Positions 161 through 4,823 of a stretch of DNA of 4,823 nt are shown piece after piece (position 1 is the stretch's first letter; each line of letters begins with the position of its first letter). The stretch is from the IMG/VR virus record IMGVR_UViG_2703718815_000008. The stretch is one strand, 5' to 3'. The stretch comes from a virus. Its lineage: Duplodnaviria > Heunggongvirae > Uroviricota > Caudoviricetes. A program made the translations under genes and the position numbers. The notes below the pieces were generated by a model. It saw nothing but the letters and a program-made list of their open reading frames with translations, was not told the origin of the DNA and made no database searches.

Positions 161-403
161 ATGTATACCTATAAAATGATTCAGGTGCCGCCGAATATTT
201 CTGTAAAGGCAAAAGATAATAAAGCGGGGGTAGCTGCTGCATATCTTCAGAATGTTGTTAATGAACAGGCGGCGGATGGCTGGGAATTTCAACGGGTTGA
301 TACGATTGGTATAGAAGAGCAGCCGGGGTGTTTCGGTGGCGGAAAGGCGCAGTTTTTTCAATACTATGTGATTACTTTTAGAAAAAAAGTATCAGATGCT
401 TAA
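161..403 (+). CDS. Small cytoplasmic protein, DUF4177-like (80 aa)
   Basis: ORF with strong RBS AAAGGAG 8 nt upstream of ATG. N-terminal M-Y-x-Y-K and central GWEF...V motif match my recollection of the DUF4177 family. Stop overlaps the start of the next gene by 8 nt (translational coupling). Confidence 0.65.
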   Translation: MYTYKMIQVPPNISVKAKDNKAGVAAAYLQNVVNEQAADGWEFQRVDTIGIEEQPGCFGGGKAQFFQYYVITFRKKVSDA

Positions 404-629
404 ATGGCTTAGTATACGTCTGATTCTTTATTATCGTGCTCATGCGCCAGCCAGCATTCGTAACAGATGTCGTTATACTCCAAGCTGTTCGGCTTACACT
501 TTGGTGTCAATAAGGCGCTATGGCTTTTTTGAAGGCTGGCGATTAGGATTGAGCCGGATTTATCGCTGTCGTCCGCCTAATGGTGGTGCAGATTACCCTC
601 CTCATATTTGTAAATGTCGCAAATCGTGA
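396..629 (+). CDS. yidD: YidD-family protein (membrane protein insertion efficiency factor-like), stand-alone paralog
   Basis: 77-aa ORF carrying the YidD/haemolytic-domain signature: CRYTPSCSAY ... G...GW.LG..RI.RC.P..GGxDxPP. Not in the canonical rnpA-yidD-yidC context; here coupled to a DUF4177-like gene. Confidence 0.85.
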   Translation: MLKWLSIRLILYYRAHAPASIRNRCRYTPSCSAYTLVSIRRYGFFEGWRLGLSRIYRCRPPNGGADYPPHICKCRKS

Positions 630-759: not shown

Positions 760-900
760 TTACTGTCTACATTGTAAGAACGCCGCAAACTCCGCTCCCC
801 AGAAGCTCATCCGTATCTCACACAGTGAACCGTGTAGCATCCAGATGATGAGGATTGCCGTTACGCAGAACGTAATGGCCGTAAGCGATTTTTGCGACAT
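760..900 (-). CDS. hok: Hok/Gef-family type I toxin (46 aa), absent from the ORF track because it is under the length cut-off
   Basis: Reverse-complement translation: MSQKSLTAITFCVTAILIIWMLHGSLCEIRMSFWGAEFAAFLQCRQ. One N-terminal transmembrane segment followed by SLCEIR and E.AAF motifs, as in Hok of plasmid R1 (..SLCEIRYRDGHREVAAF..) and E. coli HokA/HokC. SD-like AAGGAG about 8 nt upstream. Confidence 0.85.
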   Translation of the reverse strand: MSQKSLTAITFCVTAILIIWMLHGSLCEIRMSFWGAEFAAFLQCRQ

Positions 901-1003
901 AGCGCTTGCTCCTTTTTCGGGGAGGCGCTAACCTACGACTTGCGAAGGTTGTATGGCTAGGGCCTCGGGTTAACGTTAAAGTTGACTCGGGGCCTTTCCA
1001 CAT
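818..1003 (-). CDS. mok: mok-like overlapping reading frame (modulation of killing) of the hok locus
   Basis: 61-codon frame starting at ATG 1003 and overlapping the first 83 nt of hok in a different frame, as in mok/hok of R1. Its start lies upstream of the conserved leader hairpin, unlike R1, so the exact start is uncertain. Confidence 0.4.
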   Translation of the reverse strand: MWKGPESTLTLTRGPSHTTFASRRLAPPRKRSKRYVAKIAYGHYVLRNGNPHHLDATRFTV

Positions 1004-1008
1004 TCGGC
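941..1008 (+). ncRNA. sok: Predicted Sok-like antisense RNA (about 65 nt)
   Basis: Inference by analogy to R1 Sok. Candidate + strand promoter TTGCTC (906-911)-N17-TAACCT (929-934), TSS near 941. Imperfect hairpin 961-994 (GGCCTCGGG...CTCGGGGCC) followed by a U-rich stretch (995-1004). Antisense to the hok leader and mok start. Boundaries approximate. Confidence 0.3.
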
Positions 1009-1053
1009 CTTCGGGTATTCCCTCCAGCCATCAGCCGAAAGGCACCCGCGCGA

Positions 1054-1083
1054 ATTCTAGCCTGGTTTTTTCCCTTGTTTCAA
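1054..1083 (-). promoter_or_regulatory. Predicted hok promoter (TTGAAA-N18-TAGAAT on the - strand)
   Basis: -35 TTGAAA (rc of 1078-1083), -10 TAGAAT (rc of 1054-1059), giving a TSS near 1048. The predicted 5' end GGGUGCC (rc of 1041-1047) is perfectly complementary to GGCACCC (rc of 693-699) in the 3' UTR, matching the tac/fbi end-pairing typical of hok mRNAs. Predicted mRNA about 400 nt, as for R1 hok. Confidence 0.45.
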
Positions 1084-1087
1084 TCCG

Positions 1088-1117
1088 TTGAGACTTATCA
1101 GCCTTCTGATGTAAAAT
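1088..1117 (+). promoter_or_regulatory. Candidate + strand promoter divergent from the hok promoter (TTGAGA-N18-TAAAAT)
   Basis: -35 TTGAGA (1088-1093), -10 TAAAAT (1112-1117) with TG immediately upstream. Would give a transcript of about 64 nt ending at the 1164-1187 terminator. Confidence 0.3.
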
Positions 1118-1163
1118 TCCCGACCGCAGACATTATTCAGTCACGCATTTGATACATGCTTCC

Positions 1164-1187
1164 GCCGGCGTTCGCGCCGGTTTTTTT
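1164..1187 (+). terminator. Rho-independent terminator (+ strand)
   Basis: GC-rich stem GCCGGCG (1164-1170) / CGCCGGC with loop TTCG, followed by T7 (1181-1187). On the - strand there is no U-tract after the stem, so it is oriented for + strand transcripts. Confidence 0.6.
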
Positions 1188-1355
1188 CGTCCTGTTGCTG
1201 CATAGATCGTCATGCGCGATCGAGGCGCGGTATTGATCCTTTTTTCAGTTTAATTTTGACTCTCAATTTTACGCAGGCCGCGCCGCGTCTGGCTTCGTTG
1301 TTTGACGATTTTTTGATGCGATCCTTTCGTGATCGTTTCCCGTCTCGCGTAAAGT

Positions 1356-1451
1356 ATGAAAACTCTTTTAATATCATGCGGTTTTATTGCCCCTGCCATT
1401 TATGCGATCGTAAAAACCACTCTGAAAACTGCAAAAAATTTCAAAGCGTGA
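1356..1451 (+). CDS. Hypothetical 31-aa hydrophobic peptide (speculative small membrane protein or type I toxin-like ORF)
   Basis: ATG...TGA frame translating to MKTLLISCGFIAPAIYAIVKTTLKTAKNFKA: a hydrophobic core plus a Lys-rich C-terminal tail. Weak or absent SD and rare codons (ATA, TTA). The 3' end overlaps a perfect palindrome. May be non-coding. Confidence 0.15.
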   Translation: MKTLLISCGFIAPAIYAIVKTTLKTAKNFKA

Positions 1452-1563
1452 AATTTCAGATCTCCGCTTTTCCCTCAGTTGCTGCGCGGGCTGGCGGTCA
1501 GTTTTGCACGGCAGAAAACTGAAAAAGTGTTTCGACACAAAACCCGCGGGTTGGAGGGGGTAG

Positions 1564-1613
1564 CGCGGTTTACGTCACCTCACACTTTACGTCACACCGT
1601 TTACGCGGTGTGT
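1564..1613. repeat. Iteron-like direct repeats (TTTACGTCAC x2 plus TTTACGCGG) with an embedded 7-bp inverted repeat
   Basis: Seen in sequence: TTTACGTCAC at 1569-1578 and 1586-1595, TTTACGCGG at 1600-1608 (spacings 17 and 14 bp). Inverted repeat CACACCG (1593-1599) / CGGTGTG (1607-1613). Function unknown. Confidence 0.5.
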
Positions 1614-1665
1614 GCATACAGCGCCGGAATGGCACGCAGAACGCATTAATCAGGTGGTGGATATG

Positions 1666-1692
1666 AAAAACGCACGGTCGGAACCGTGCGTT
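1666..1692 (-). terminator. Rho-independent terminator of the - strand operon (downstream of the 565-aa gene)
   Basis: Stem AACGCACGG (1669-1677) / CCGTGCGTT (1684-1692) with loop TCGGAA. On the - strand the stem is followed by a U5 tract (complement of A1666-1670), about 40 nt after the stop codon at 1731-1733. Confidence 0.55.
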
Positions 1693-1730
1693 GTTTGATG
1701 GGGCGTTTATGTGGGTTTTATGTCGGGAGC

Positions 1731-3428
1731 TCAGGCGATAAGGTCGCCGTATTTTTCGCGCAGGCTCGTAGCCTGCAGGGCATCTGCGGCAAGTTCGCCG
1801 CTGTTCATTGGTGCGCCAGTGTTGTTGTGGGTGTGGTTTGCTGTGTGCGTGGCCAGCAATTGAATCAGATCCAGAATATCAATCAACAACGTCAGCAGAT
1901 TAAGTTCGGATTTTTCCCGTGAGCCACCGCGACCAATAAATACTGTCGGGGCTGTAAACTTCAGACCGCCGTCCGCCCGGCATGTTCTGCGGCCTCCCAC
2001 GTTTTCAGTCAGGTCCTGCTCAATTGTGGATATTGTCCCTTTGAGTTTAGTCAGCAAATCCTGCGCTACCATCTGGATATGCTCGCTGGCTGCGATCGCG
2101 TAATGGCCGGTAGTAAGGTGCTCTATTTGTCCTGCCGCCAGCTTGCTGGTTCCCAGAACACTGGTTATGTCGTTTGCCCGTACTGTGGTTGTTCTGGTTG
2201 TTGTGGTGCGCTCTTCTGCATCACTGTTAATTGTGCGGGTGGCTGACTGCTCCCTGATTTGCTGGTCTGTTTCTCTGTGCCAGCTTCCGTCAGTCGTGAC
2301 GCGCTGAAACACTTCTGCGCGCTGTTGCTGCAGTTGTTCGCCGGGCTTTACATCAGGCAGGTTATGGCCAGCAGGTAAGATTTGCCTGATAACAGGTTTA
2401 TCCGGGCGCCCTTCAATGTTAGATATTTCCACGATGGTGCCTGCCGGCGGGTAGGCAAAACATCCCGCCTCGCTACCAGCCATCGGGACGGGGAGTGGGA
2501 CTGCCGGGTAAACAGGCGTATCGCTTTTATCGTTGCCGTCCTCATCGAGCAGTTGCACGTCCACGGCGTAGCGTGGACGGAAGCTGTCGGCCACATCGCC
2601 CAGGGTGGCGGATTCCGTTGGTGCAATGACGCGCGCCAGCCTGGTGTGTAGTGTGCCGCTGGCCAGTTCCGGGAACTGTGTTTCCATCTGTCTGCGTAAT
2701 GGTGATTTGGAGACAGGGCTGCCCGTGACGGTAAGGCGCTCCCACGTCAGAGTCATTTTCTCGTTGTTGAGGGCTACGCGGGTAATACGCCCGGTGGGAA
2801 GATTCACGCCCGGTCGCACAGTTTCCATGAACATGATGTCGATGCTGTTTCCGCCGCTTTGCCCGAGAGCGTACTGTTGCGGAATATCCGGCATCGTAAT
2901 ACTGGCAAATCGTGAATCAGCGGCGCTTCCCACAAATACAGAACCGTCCGGCATTGGGTGCCAGACGTAATCGCTGATACTGAATGCGCGCCCCAGCTGG
3001 CTGAGTAGCTGCGTTCCGCTGCCGCTGTGGGTGATGTAGGGGGTTGGTGTGTTGACATAATCCGCGTCCGGGGTGATAAAAACGATGCCGCTTTGTCGTC
3101 CCAGATTATCTAACACCTCCCGCAACGTCGGGTGTTGCATGGAGCAGGGGAAATCAAAATCCAGCACAGCAGCTGCTTCACGGATAAAAAGGCGGCGCGA
3201 ACCATTTTCGGCGGGTTGGTCGCGTTCAACGTAGCCGGAGAAATAGCGCCAGACTTCACCGTCACGGCCGAGATCAATTTGTACCATTGCGCCGGCAAGG
3301 CTTTTTTCTGGTGACAGATTATTAACAGAAATGAAGCCACGACCGGCAGCATTCAGGGTAAGAACAAGGCTTATATCGGCAATTTCCACCCGTTCGCCAT
3401 TAATCATGCAGCGTTGTATCAATTTCAT
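1731..3428 (-). CDS. Hypothetical 565-aa protein; tentatively a phage-tail-like structural protein (baseplate hub/spike- or fibre-like), last gene of the operon
   Basis: Long ORF with strong RBS GAGGAAGGG and an ATGA start/stop overlap with the upstream gene. No Walker A motif, no signal peptide. Thr-rich tract TTTTRTTTV and His-rich C-terminal segment LIQLLATHTANHTHNNTG (HxH-type motifs occur at metal-binding tips of trimeric phage spikes and fibres). An N-terminal segment, FSGYVE...TLREVLDNL...GIVF, loosely resembles gpD/gp27/VgrG hub motifs. Product is inference only. Confidence 0.8.
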   Translation of the reverse strand: MKLIQRCMINGERVEIADISLVLTLNAAGRGFISVNNLSPEKSLAGAMVQIDLGRDGEVWRYFSGYVERDQPAENGSRRLFIREAAAVLDFDFPCSMQHPTLREVLDNLGRQSGIVFITPDADYVNTPTPYITHSGSGTQLLSQLGRAFSISDYVWHPMPDGSVFVGSAADSRFASITMPDIPQQYALGQSGGNSIDIMFMETVRPGVNLPTGRITRVALNNEKMTLTWERLTVTGSPVSKSPLRRQMETQFPELASGTLHTRLARVIAPTESATLGDVADSFRPRYAVDVQLLDEDGNDKSDTPVYPAVPLPVPMAGSEAGCFAYPPAGTIVEISNIEGRPDKPVIRQILPAGHNLPDVKPGEQLQQQRAEVFQRVTTDGSWHRETDQQIREQSATRTINSDAEERTTTTRTTTVRANDITSVLGTSKLAAGQIEHLTTGHYAIAASEHIQMVAQDLLTKLKGTISTIEQDLTENVGGRRTCRADGGLKFTAPTVFIGRGGSREKSELNLLTLLIDILDLIQLLATHTANHTHNNTGAPMNSGELAADALQATSLREKYGDLIA

Positions 3429-4000
3429 GTTTTCCCTTCCTCTTTCACGCTCCCGATGCCAACAGCATCCAGACCAGAGCCAACGGCATCATTGATTTTT
3501 TTCCAGAACGAACTTTGCGTATTCATGCCTTTGTCTGGTGCCTGTTCGCTACCGTTCTGGGTCTGCTGTCTGGCGATGGTTTTCTGCGAACCGCTGCGTG
3601 CGGATGCTTTCTCTGGCACGCTTAATTTTTCCCTGAGAGTAAAGGTAACCTGCCAGTGCATTTTTCCCTGTTGTTCCGTGGCATCAATGCCACCAGAAAA
3701 TACCCCCTGTCGCATATTGATTGCCTTCGCGGTAGCGTTAGCAATGCGATATGTTTTTTTAGCACCGTTGCTTTCTGTTGCCTCCGCAAGCTGAAAAATA
3801 CGGGTCAGAATAGCTTCATCATTAAAATCAATAACCCCCGACACGCGCAGCTCTTTAGCCTTGTTTCCCTGCTGGGCGCTCGTGGTGCTGGTTGACTGTC
3901 CGGACATATCTTTGTCCGGTAGTTGCATGGTGGCGCTGACGGTGATGTTGCGCAGCAGAATGGCTTCCCCGTCAAGCGCAAGGACAATCATCTGGGTCAT
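3425..4000 (-). CDS. Hypothetical 191-aa protein (Ser/Thr/Gln/Gly-rich; possibly a phage-tail-associated structural protein)
   Basis: ORF with excellent RBS AAGGGAGG 7 nt upstream of ATG 4000. Stop overlaps the start of the 565-aa gene (ATGA). No signal peptide, transmembrane segment or nucleotide-binding motif. Product unknown. Confidence 0.75.
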   Translation of the reverse strand: MTQMIVLALDGEAILLRNITVSATMQLPDKDMSGQSTSTTSAQQGNKAKELRVSGVIDFNDEAILTRIFQLAEATESNGAKKTYRIANATAKAINMRQGVFSGGIDATEQQGKMHWQVTFTLREKLSVPEKASARSGSQKTIARQQTQNGSEQAPDKGMNTQSSFWKKINDAVGSGLDAVGIGSVKEEGKT

Positions 4001-4685
4001 GTAGTGCCTCCCTTAGTGATGAGAGATTATCGCCGACGAACAGCATCACAGCTGTAAAAACCCACTCGGGGTGTGGGATGTTTTTTTGTATCAGCACTGC
4101 AGCCTGGCTAAGGGCTCCCTTGTAGCAAAAGCGCCACACCGGGCAAAATTTTTGCCGGAGTGCAGCCTGCTGATCAGCGATTTCCTGTAAGGCTTTATCT
4201 CTCGCATTCATGAACTGATGCAGTGATGATGACAATGTTTCCGGTGATGTGGCGGCAGGAGTGGCTGCCTGTGCAATGGTTGCCGCCAGCGACATGCTGC
4301 GAGTGGTCTGTGTCGACAGCATTATCGGTTCCGGAAGTGATGTTGCCGGTCTGGCGGGGATTTGCATTCTGCTGATGGCCAGTGAAAGCTGGCTGGAGAT
4401 CATGCGGGACATTCGTCCCACCTCCGGCAACGGAAATGCGCCTGAAAATTGCCTGGCGAGTGATAAAAACTCGCCAGCAGAAGGAGCGCAAAATAACAGC
4501 GCCACAATGTCCTTTTCTGTGTTTTCTTTCAGATAGGGTAAAAGTGCAGATACAGCATTTTCGGGGCTGAGATAACGCCCCGATGGTTTGATGTTTCCGG
4601 TATTTTCTGACCATGGATGCAGGCAAACCACAGAGCATTTAATGTTCATGGCTGACGGGCGCAGAATTGCCTTTTCCCATTTCAT
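3972..4685 (-). CDS. Hypothetical 237-aa protein with two domains joined by a low-complexity Ala/Thr/Ser/Pro linker
   Basis: ORF with RBS GGAGAG. Start overlaps the stop of the upstream gene (ATGA) and the 3' end overlaps the 191-aa gene by 29 nt in another frame. No recognisable catalytic motif. Product unknown. Confidence 0.7.
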   Translation of the reverse strand: MKWEKAILRPSAMNIKCSVVCLHPWSENTGNIKPSGRYLSPENAVSALLPYLKENTEKDIVALLFCAPSAGEFLSLARQFSGAFPLPEVGRMSRMISSQLSLAISRMQIPARPATSLPEPIMLSTQTTRSMSLAATIAQAATPAATSPETLSSSLHQFMNARDKALQEIADQQAALRQKFCPVWRFCYKGALSQAAVLIQKNIPHPEWVFTAVMLFVGDNLSSLREALHDPDDCPCA

Positions 4686-4823
4686 TCTGACTCTCCAGCC
4701 TGAAAAGCGCGGATGTCGGCAAGATTATTAAGGCTATCCAGCACGTCCTTCATCTGTCGCTGACGGCGATAAATCTCGTCATTGCGATCGACCTGCGCCT
4801 GCGCCATTGCTGCCGCCAGTTCT
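4682..4823 (-). CDS. 3' end of an upstream gene (5'-truncated by the window edge); C-terminus predicted alpha-helical and charged
   Basis: Open frame running to the window edge and ending ...ELAAAMAQAQVDRNDEIYRRQRQMKDVLDSLNNLADIRAFQAGESQN with stop TGA at 4682-4684 overlapping the next start (ATGA). Coiled-coil-like composition; it could be the end of a tape-measure-like or scaffold-like protein, but that is speculative. Confidence 0.6.
   Translation of the reverse strand, partial: ELAAAMAQAQVDRNDEIYRRQRQMKDVLDSLNNLADIRAFQAGESE

Follow-up and report, generated by a model that had tools for sequence, protein, structure and literature searches.

Three proteins of phage P2, gpU, gpD and gpV (PA0626, PA0628 and PA0616 in R2 pyocin), serve as tube initiator or ripcord, as hub and as spike, the spike being made of an OB fold and a β-helix with a C-terminal HxH motif. 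The HxH of gpV (H197/H199) forms an Fe cage and, according to Leiman's rule, a separate PAAR tip is carried by spikes without HxH (bioRxiv 10.1101/2023.02.25.529910). Hub and spike are separate chains in P2, where V stands first in the V-W-J-I-H-G operon and the F operon closes with U-D. In contrast, T6SS VgrG and Afp8/Pvc8 join a gp27-like hub, an OB fold and a β-helix in a single chain, which ends blunt with a PAAR cap. In phage HP1 (Peduoviridae, Hpunavirus), the gpD and gpV homologues are already published as fused (PMC10612066, Table S1 footnote), and orf34 is tentatively equated with gpU, a homology that the ACA1 authors rate as uncertain (PMC10612066). The HP1 tail subgroup, as considered here, includes HP1, HP2, K139, phiO18P, F108, ESSI-2, vB_YenM_324 and ACA1; in several Vibrio and Pseudoalteromonas members, hub and spike are encoded by separate genes. 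The PV94 paper holds no data on genes of the orf33-orf34-orf35 type.

A temperate P2-like myovirus (Peduoviridae, HP1 tail subgroup), integrated in an E. coli-like chromosome, is very probably the source of the operon in the window, that is, the whole 4,823-nt stretch analysed here, which covers the 3' end of this late (tail) operon and encodes the inner baseplate (Table 1). Four consecutive minus-strand genes overlap in the way that the sequence-only reading had described: stop and start codons share an ATGA at 3425-3428 and at 4682-4685, and the overlap at 3972-4000 is 29 nt long. Such overlaps would provide the translational coupling usual in phage late operons, presumably expressed here from an Ogr-type late promoter located outside the window. 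A Shine-Dalgarno motif precedes every start (GGAG; AAGGGAGG, 7 nt upstream; GAGGAAGGGA). The genes are under purifying selection: dN/dS ranges from 0.03 to 0.21 against three E. coli relatives, with no internal stop, the ratio not being defined for the 565-aa gene against L001, a pair for which dS is zero. Homologues of the operon proteins number in the hundreds to thousands. A motif scan confirmed that the proteins lack Walker A and Walker B motifs. The compositional bias noticed earlier (Thr/Ser/Gln/Gly-rich) holds modestly for the 565-aa and 191-aa proteins (T+S+Q+G share of 28.8% and 35.1%) and fails for the 237-aa protein (23.2%). Within the operon, the Rfam scan gave nothing credible, an RsmY match at 3941-4082 (E 0.33) being taken as chance.

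Table 1. Features located in the window (nucleotide positions; all on the minus strand)
Feature	Position	Strand	Basis
Upstream partial ORF	enters from beyond 4823, stops at 4682	-	ORF call
3' end of upstream gene, 46 codons, DUF4376 / tail-fibre-associated	4682..4823	-	PHROG C-terminus matches
HP1 orf33-like protein, 237 aa	3972..4685	-	BLASTP to HP1 orf33; PHROG 31292 and 1677
HP1 orf34-like baseplate complex protein, 191 aa	3425..4000	-	BLASTP to HP1 orf34; tube fold
HP1 orf35-like fused central hub and spike, 565 aa	1731..3428	-	BLASTP; PHROG 2258; Foldseek
Hub domain, residues about 1-270, gp27 / gpD / Mu gp44-like	2619..3428	-	AF2 pLDDT 75-96; Foldseek
Spike OB-fold region, residues about 285-350	2379..2576	-	weak but consistent profile signals
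Putative spike triple-stranded β-helix, residues about 395-505	1914..2246	-	profile match; inferred
C-terminal tip, residues 508-565: helix, HxH, helix	1734..1907	-	conservation; AF2
Intrinsic-terminator-like hairpin	1669..1692	-	inverted repeat, 10-bp stem, 6 GC pairs, T-run
hok/sok-type type I toxin-antitoxin	760..1047	-	Hok Pfam match; sub-threshold sok Rfam match

The gene sizes and order, which had been thought to fit no known tail module, match those of HP1 orf33-orf34-orf35 (258, 187 and 533 aa), the order and orientation being identical and the sizes nearly so, with overlapping junctions there as well. In HP1, and also in Yersinia phage vB_YenM_324, the module likewise comes last in the tail operon, behind the genes for fibres and their assembly. 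Identity is 25-46% to the HP1 proteins and about 47-51% to those of the nearest sequenced phages. Phage records with an orf34-type protein and those with an orf35-type protein number 75 in either case, show an identical genus distribution and all belong to small P2/HP1-like myoviruses. In E. coli AJ1, the three operon genes are found at 96-99.8% nucleotide identity per gene, closing a late operon in which sheath, tube, tape-measure, gpW-like, gpJ, gpI and fibre genes lie upstream of the module. As the window ends inside the fibre cluster, the full head and tail gene context is read from this relative. The AJ1 prophage is complete (34-kb), inserted between pdxB and flk, and carries an integrase, Cox, a replication endonuclease, Ogr, portal, terminase and a P2-family capsid, as well as lysis genes. 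The earlier suggestion of a prophage-borne phage-tail module is borne out by HP1 homology and by the AJ1 context. The E. coli prophage pairs P2-type regulation and head genes with an HP1-type tail and, unlike HP1, has a second fibre gene and one for a DUF4376 protein upstream.

The last gene of the operon encodes the 565-aa protein, which is related to HP1 orf35 (38% identity, BLASTP E 5e-129) and to PHROG 2258, 'baseplate protein' (2.6e-232). Its AF2 model retrieves full-length VgrG, Pvc8 and Afp8 in Foldseek (E 1e-13 to 1e-16), the closest full-length structural matches, at 9-13% sequence identity. The hub domain matches Mu gp44 (1wru, 1.7e-9), MuSo2 (3cdd, 1.4e-9) and the E217 hub (8eon, 4.7e-8), and more weakly T4 gp27 (1wth, 8.7e-5) and the R2 pyocin hub (6u5h, 1.2e-4); in BFVD, its matches are named 'Phage protein D'. 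A loose resemblance of the N-terminal region to gp27, gpD and VgrG, noted from the sequence, is supported at the level of fold (Foldseek E 1e-9 to 1e-16). Downstream of the hub, signals compatible with an OB fold come from Pfam Phage_base_V (PF04717, residues 310-347, E 0.02, below cut-off), NCBIfam VgrG (E 2e-4 over residues 264-364, a score far under its cut-off) and a profile of 37 homologues compared with VgrG OB regions (E about 0.01). For the OB fold and the trimeric β-helix taken together, Pfam adds PF22178 (E 0.87, also below cut-off). The same profile matches the C-terminal β-helix of T4 gp5 over residues 416-502 (E 0.011-0.03). The monomer model is poor over residues 273-506, with pLDDT of 32-58 over about 395-505, and low values over a β-helix are expected of an intertwined trimer.

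By its predicted fold and its position, the 565-aa protein is the equivalent of P2 gpD and gpV fused in one chain, with a VgrG-like architecture. It would trimerise into a central hub fused to a membrane-piercing spike, in which an OB fold would be followed by a β-helix and then by the C-terminal tip. Upon sheath contraction, the spike would be driven through the outer membrane. Unlike VgrG and Afp8/Pvc8, the protein is encoded in a phage virion context and bears an HxH tip of its own.

At this tip, the His-rich segment HTANHTH corresponds to residues 528-534, H532-T533-H534 being encoded at nt 1827-1835. H532 and H534 are invariant across 37 homologues, and HxH is present in 116 of the 116 full-length homologues, HP1 included, 34-39 residues before the C-terminus. 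The 565-aa protein thus has the HxH that marks a gpV-type apex (bioRxiv 10.1101/2023.02.25.529910), and the guess of a His-rich metal-binding tip was well founded, the motif being of the Fe-cage kind seen in spike tips. By analogy with P2 gpV, a trimer is predicted to hold a metal ion in a cage of three HxH motifs. In the monomer model (pLDDT 68-86 over residues 511-560), however, HxH lies in the turn between helices 511-530 and 543-564, a helical hairpin unlike the β apex of gpV. With a tip predicted as helical and not as β-structured, metal caging is not assured.

The 191-aa protein is 46% identical to HP1 orf34 (BLASTP E 6e-38) and belongs to Pfam PF25759 (9.7e-54) and PHROG 1398. Residues 1-125 form a tube-fold core, followed by a disordered C-terminal tail. 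The core has the tail-tube (Hcp-like) fold, and its structural matches are tube initiators and ripcords. On fold and position, the protein is a member of the tube-initiator/ripcord class and the functional counterpart of P2 gpU. It would form a ring atop the hub, from which the tail tube would polymerise, a proposed role like that of P2 gpU and pyocin PA0626. At the sequence level, PF06995 (Phage_P2_GpU) is absent among its Pfam matches at E<=1, and hhalign of the 191-aa family against P2 gpU gave a probability of 0.1%. Similarly, probabilities were below 1% when the three protein alignments were compared with the single P2 gpU, gpD and gpV sequences, and since single-sequence templates are too weak for such a comparison, this is not evidence against equivalence.

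The 237-aa protein is a more distant relative of its HP1 counterpart, orf33 (25% identity, BLASTP E 2e-18), and both PHROGs that it matches (Table 1) are labelled 'unknown function'. No Pfam or PDB relative was found, nor any Pfam domain in eight distant orf33 homologues, one of them a 527-aa fusion. Across a library of 1.84 billion, the family has 145 cluster representatives, and dN/dS of the gene is 0.05-0.12. A possible relative, NDUEG3 (E 2.8e-4 over 39 residues), was discarded as the match was lost with a 69-sequence family profile. Close homologues also conserve H23, C66, C181 and H205, a candidate catalytic or metal site that was dismissed since neither HP1 orf33 nor the wider family keeps C66, C181 and H205. 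For both the 191-aa and the 237-aa families, PDB sequence and profile searches gave chance matches only, and at the sequence level no experimentally determined structure came up for these two families or for that of the 565-aa protein. In virions of the distant phage ACA1, mass spectrometry detected the orf33 homologue gp46 weakly (2 spectra), and also the homologues gp48 and gp49, whereas gp47 was not detected (PMC10612066, Table S2). The 237-aa protein is probably a minor virion or baseplate-associated protein. It is taken to be a fast-evolving accessory confined to the HP1 subgroup, probably a low-copy component of the virion or baseplate, or an assembly factor.

Upstream, the partial ORF matches PHROG 7703 (7e-15) and PHROG 1141, 'tail fiber protein' (1e-12), at their C-termini. 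Its relatives are 191 aa long, and the E. coli homologue, annotated by PGAP as 'DUF4376 domain-containing protein', sits after tail-fibre and fibre-assembly genes. The fragment is part of the tail-fibre cluster.

The same genes could also, in this genome, belong to a decayed prophage remnant or to a domesticated tailocin-like element, in place of an inducible phage; their products would then not end up in virions, or would act in a phage-tail-like bacteriocin. A precedent is found in E. coli MB07081, where all that is left, adjoining raiA and a truncated shikimate-transporter pseudogene, is DUF4376, orf33, orf34, orf35, hok, com and a DNA methyltransferase; moreover, the window stops at 4823, leaving the upstream genes outside, and its left flank (DUF4177, YidD-like ORF) departs from the best E. 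coli matches. On the other hand, the closest relative, AJ1, holds a complete prophage that covers head, packaging, lysis, replication and integration functions, and none of the three ORFs is disrupted, dN/dS being close to 0.1. A remnant or tailocin-like element is unlikely. No tailocin is known to have a tail of the HP1-subgroup type, which also counts against the second form of this explanation.

The sequence-only reading had favoured the locus as a place for an undescribed system, and 'hypothetical protein' is indeed the label of many database entries across all three proteins, while the 237-aa protein has no family of assigned function. A contractile or secretion system of non-phage origin is nevertheless highly improbable: the genes are homologous to HP1 orf33-35 and to those of 75 sequenced P2/HP1-like phages, named families take in two of the three proteins (PF25759; PHROG 2258), the full prophage context is seen in AJ1, and the HP1 assignments are published (PMC10612066). 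A role of the 565-aa protein as the VgrG of a type VI secretion system, delivering effectors between bacteria, is scarcely credible, as the PGAP name of its E. coli AJ1 homologue ('type VI secretion system Vgr family protein'), the T6SS VgrG structures among its best Foldseek matches and its weak NCBIfam VgrG matches stand against a fold common to all contractile injection systems, NCBIfam scores of 20.3 bits versus 121.8 (TIGR01646) and 17.3 versus 186.35 (TIGR03361), phage tail genes as neighbours with T6SS genes absent nearby, and an HxH tip where separate PAAR tips go with spikes without HxH.

The module very probably represents the inner-baseplate genes of an ordinary P2/HP1-type prophage. 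Its assignment replaces three 'hypothetical protein' labels, common in E. coli prophages, by specific baseplate roles, with little meaning beyond annotation, and flags public names that mislead about the homologues ('T6SS Vgr family protein', 'adenine glycosylase', 'nucleoid DNA-binding protein'). Compared with P2, a counterpart of the LysM protein gpX is not recognised here, and the orf33 protein is extra. We tentatively consider, as a possibility rather than an expectation, that the 237-aa protein is a baseplate part specific to the HP1 subgroup, with no P2, Mu, T4, pyocin or T6SS counterpart and possibly replacing gpX, and that the spike ends in a helical-hairpin HxH metal tip distinct from the β apex of gpV. 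If so, the HP1-type baseplate might show a new solution at the hub periphery and at the tip. An experimental structure is still awaited for the HP1-type inner baseplate, notably for its orf33 protein and its predicted helical HxH tip.

On the other side of the module, the terminator-like hairpin lies 39 nt past the stop codon of the 565-aa gene (1692-1669, minus strand), which fits the operon end placed there from sequence. Hok is encoded at 760-900 on the minus strand (PF01848, 30 bits for a cut-off of 22), and a match at 887-1047 (36.7 bits, E 8.8e-6, below the Rfam gathering score of 59) is suggestive of the sok RNA half. The hok/sok pair reported from sequence is present; it does not directly follow the operon, as about 670 nt (1060-1730) without annotated gene separate it from the orf35-like gene. 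The cassette is 82-90% identical to that of phage P88, other P2-like phages and Stx phages, and is prophage 'moron' cargo outside the tail module. Further left, the flank with DUF4177 and the YidD-like ORF is not shared with the best E. coli matches, which start at about 639.

Over its full length, the 191-aa protein belongs to Pfam PF25759, 'Bacteriophage HP1 ORF34 baseplate complex protein' (9.7e-54), and the 565-aa protein likewise to PHROG 2258, 'baseplate protein' (2.6e-232). The PHROG assignments of the 237-aa protein are all 'unknown function', and the matches of the upstream fragment are to the C-termini of tail-fibre PHROGs and of DUF4376. The last genes annotated in the genome of Haemophilus phage HP1 are the overlapping orf33 (258 aa), orf34 (187 aa) and orf35 (533 aa), an order shared with the 237-, 191- and 565-aa genes of the window. 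Pairwise BLASTP against these HP1 proteins gave E values of 2e-18, 6e-38 and 5e-129, respectively. The cluster, correctly observed in the sequence-only reading, consists of ordinary prophage tail genes of a known kind. The phage-tail interpretation was right, and the proposal of an undescribed system is refuted by the condition stated with it, homology to annotated families in an annotated prophage context being essentially what was found. The statement that the genes match no tail module considered there holds for lambda, P2, Mu, T4, T6SS and Afp, but HP1, absent from that list, fits.

The four consecutive ORFs agree exactly with the six-frame ORF list, and the two ATGA start/stop overlaps and single 29-nt overlap proposed as junctions were confirmed from the sequence. 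A good Shine-Dalgarno precedes each start (GGAG, AAGGGAGG and GAGGAAGGGA). Against three E. coli relatives, the ORFs have dN/dS values of 0.03-0.21 and no internal stops; they are real genes under selection. Overlapping genes are an ordinary trait of phage late operons. Stoichiometric co-expression had been read from them; however, 1:1 stoichiometry is not implied, since the hub is expected to be trimeric and the initiator hexameric. As claimed, neither Walker A nor Walker B was found in the ORF proteins, and a terminator-like hairpin closes the operon. The Thr/Ser/Gln/Gly enrichment is present but modest (T+S+Q+G 29, 35 and 23% in the 565-, 191- and 237-aa proteins).

Features of the window, with strand and supporting evidence
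Feature	Position	Strand	Evidence or remark
DUF4177-like ORF, 80 aa	161-403	+	PHROG 12383, 1.7e-40
YidD-like 'membrane protein insertion efficiency factor' ORF, 77 aa	396-629	+	PF01809 8e-18; TIGR00278 67 bits vs cut-off 40
Prophage cargo (both ORFs)	161-629	+	ORFs overlap
hok/sok cassette	639-1075
Hok toxin ORF	760-900		scores above Pfam cut-off
sok-like element	887-1047		below Rfam gathering score
Spacer	1060-1730		~670 nt
Promoter-like site	1088-1117	+	in spacer
Terminator-like site	1164-1181		in spacer
Tandem TTTACGTCAC x2	1569-1578, 1586-1595		in spacer
Terminator-like hairpin	1692-1669	-	39 nt past stop codon of 565-aa ORF
565-aa ORF	1731-3428	-	six-frame ORF list
191-aa ORF	3425-4000	-	six-frame ORF list
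237-aa ORF	3972-4685	-	six-frame ORF list
Partial ORF	from beyond 4823, stop at 4682	-	six-frame ORF list

An AlphaFold2 monomer model of the 565-aa protein, built on an alignment of 37 homologues, has high confidence over residues 1-270, poor confidence over 273-506 and fair confidence over two C-terminal helices; the poor region is expected because an intertwined trimer was modelled as a monomer. In Foldseek searches of the PDB, the best full-length matches are single-chain spikes of contractile injection systems: the AlgoCIS spike (7aef_q, 2.6e-16), T6SS VgrG (9jg9, 4mtk, 7q5p), Pvc8 (9qgm, 6j0m) and Afp8 (6rbk). Matches confined to the N-terminal part are the hubs Mu gp44, MuSo2, E217 gp41, T4 gp27 and R2 pyocin PA0628, in agreement with the gp27/gpD/VgrG-like N-terminus suggested earlier. 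P2 gpV matches weakly (E 1.3e-2), BFVD structure matches are named 'phage protein D', and the sequence gives signals for an OB fold and a gp5-type beta-helix below family thresholds only. PGAP names the protein a T6SS VgrG, which we reject because its scores lie far below the NCBIfam VgrG cut-offs. The protein therefore probably works like VgrG without being a T6SS VgrG. HHpred results on ACA1, a phage of the HP1 subgroup, led its authors to the same hub/spike conclusion: gp48 matches P2 gpD and HP1 P51739 in its N-terminal half, and gp49 matches gpV (3QR8) and the C-terminal half of P51739 (PMC10612066). In Vibrio, Pseudoalteromonas and Pseudomonas members (phage records H60-H80; ACA1 gp48/gp49), the 565-aa match lies in two pieces or genes, with hub and spike apart, whereas the two are fused in HP1 and enterobacterial members, so that the gene has been either fused or split within the family. 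In Salmonella phage SW5, the 565-aa homologue bears the misleading name 'head completion protein'.

The segment HTANHTH, likened earlier to metal-binding spike tips, spans residues 528-534. In the 37-sequence alignment, invariance is restricted to its second HxH (H532, H534). This motif was present in 116/116 full-length homologues retrieved, at 34-39 residues from the C-terminus in every one; HP1 orf35 has it too. In P2 gpV, H197 and H199 of HTHKH form an intermolecular cage round an Fe ion, and Leiman's group regards a C-terminal HxH as diagnostic of the spike apex domain (bioRxiv 10.1101/2023.02.25.529910). On this published criterion, the conserved C-terminal HxH supports a putative metal-binding tip. 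In the monomer model, HxH sits at the turn joining the two helices of a hairpin and not in a beta apex as in gpV, so that the local fold of the tip may differ. The possibly helical tip and the orf33 family are both without experimental structure.

Fold counterparts listed for the 191-aa protein include the phiCD508 LysM initiator and diffocin CD1367. Its homologues carry misleading names, 'adenine glycosylase' (vB_YenM_324, PV94, a Vibrio phage; one at locus L006, 11459-12004) and 'nucleoid DNA-binding protein' (Pseudomonas phi3, a UniRef cluster).

By analogy with contractile tails, the hub-spike trimer would nucleate the baseplate round the end of the tape-measure protein, and a tube-initiator ring would fit the pseudo-sixfold top of the hub to the tube. 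The gpW/J/I wedges and fibres, encoded just upstream, would assemble round the hub, and contraction would push the metal-stiffened tip through the outer membrane.

For the 237-aa protein, searches of Pfam, NCBIfam and the PDB returned no relative, even with a 69-sequence profile, and an exhaustive profile search gave 145 cluster representatives only. It evolves faster than the other two and was found in 18 records, in each case adjacent to them. The gene is under purifying selection, conserved in synteny and translationally coupled with the hub genes. Its homologue is annotated 'structural protein' in vB_YenM_324, and that of ACA1 gave 2 spectra in purified virions (PMC10612066). We would guess that it serves HP1-type tails specifically, as a baseplate-associated protein of low copy number or in assembly. 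Cys/His residues kept in close relatives are not conserved family-wide, which makes an enzymatic or zinc site unlikely.

Among complete E. coli genomes, 41 match the window over >=80% of its length. The counterparts of the three genes in E. coli AJ1 have 96-99.8% nucleotide identity to those of the window and lie in a 34-kb prophage between pdxB and flk. They come last in a series of late genes that share one strand: genes for the P2-family capsid and for completion of head and tail; sheath (DUF2586), tube, holin, endolysin, chaperones and tape measure; a gpW-like protein (DUF2590), gpJ, gpI, two fibre genes and a fibre-assembly gene; then DUF4376, the orf33/34/35-type genes and hok. Upstream of this series are Ogr, portal, terminase, replication endonuclease, Cox, a repressor-like HTH protein and integrase. 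Yersinia phage vB_YenM_324 has the same layout. By tblastn, each of the 565- and 191-aa proteins was found in 75 phage records, and the two have the same counts per genus (Vibrio, Escherichia, Pseudomonas, Pseudoalteromonas, Salmonella, Haemophilus, Aeromonas, Pasteurella, Yersinia, Cronobacter); complete genomes listed among them are 29-39 kb, the exceptions being three short partial records.

Two further genes of the AJ1 prophage, for ParM and for a partition/stability protein, lie between those for the replication endonuclease and the Ogr-portal region (L008 15189-16467), and its early region encodes an SPFH-domain protein; such cargo is unusual for a P2-like integrating prophage. In E. coli MB07081, a prophage remnant adjoining raiA (L007 420-7169) holds only DUF4376, orf33, orf34, orf35, hok, com and a DNA methyltransferase, with a truncated shikimate-transporter pseudogene directly beside it. 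Its three ORFs are still intact (dN/dS 0.08-0.11 vs the window).

The operon was said to be followed directly by hok/sok; the cassette is indeed downstream, but ~670 nt without annotated gene intervene. This spacer, never annotated, is conserved at 91-95% in ~50/5426 complete E. coli genomes. Since orf35 is the last gene before the linear genome end in HP1, HP2, K139, phiO18P, PV94, SW5 and ESSI-2-like records, we guess that the cos of the HP1 tail subgroup may sit there. The cassette is a mobile moron, with 82-90% identity to those of P88, Xuanwuvirus and other P2-like phages. The P88 copy follows a true P2-type gpD, and many Stx-converting lambdoid phages carry the cassette too. This mobility explains why some part of the window is matched in 1612/5426 E. 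coli genomes. The cargo stretch beyond the cassette has a counterpart in P88 at 88% identity, where only the first ORF is annotated; a phage-borne yidD is unusual.
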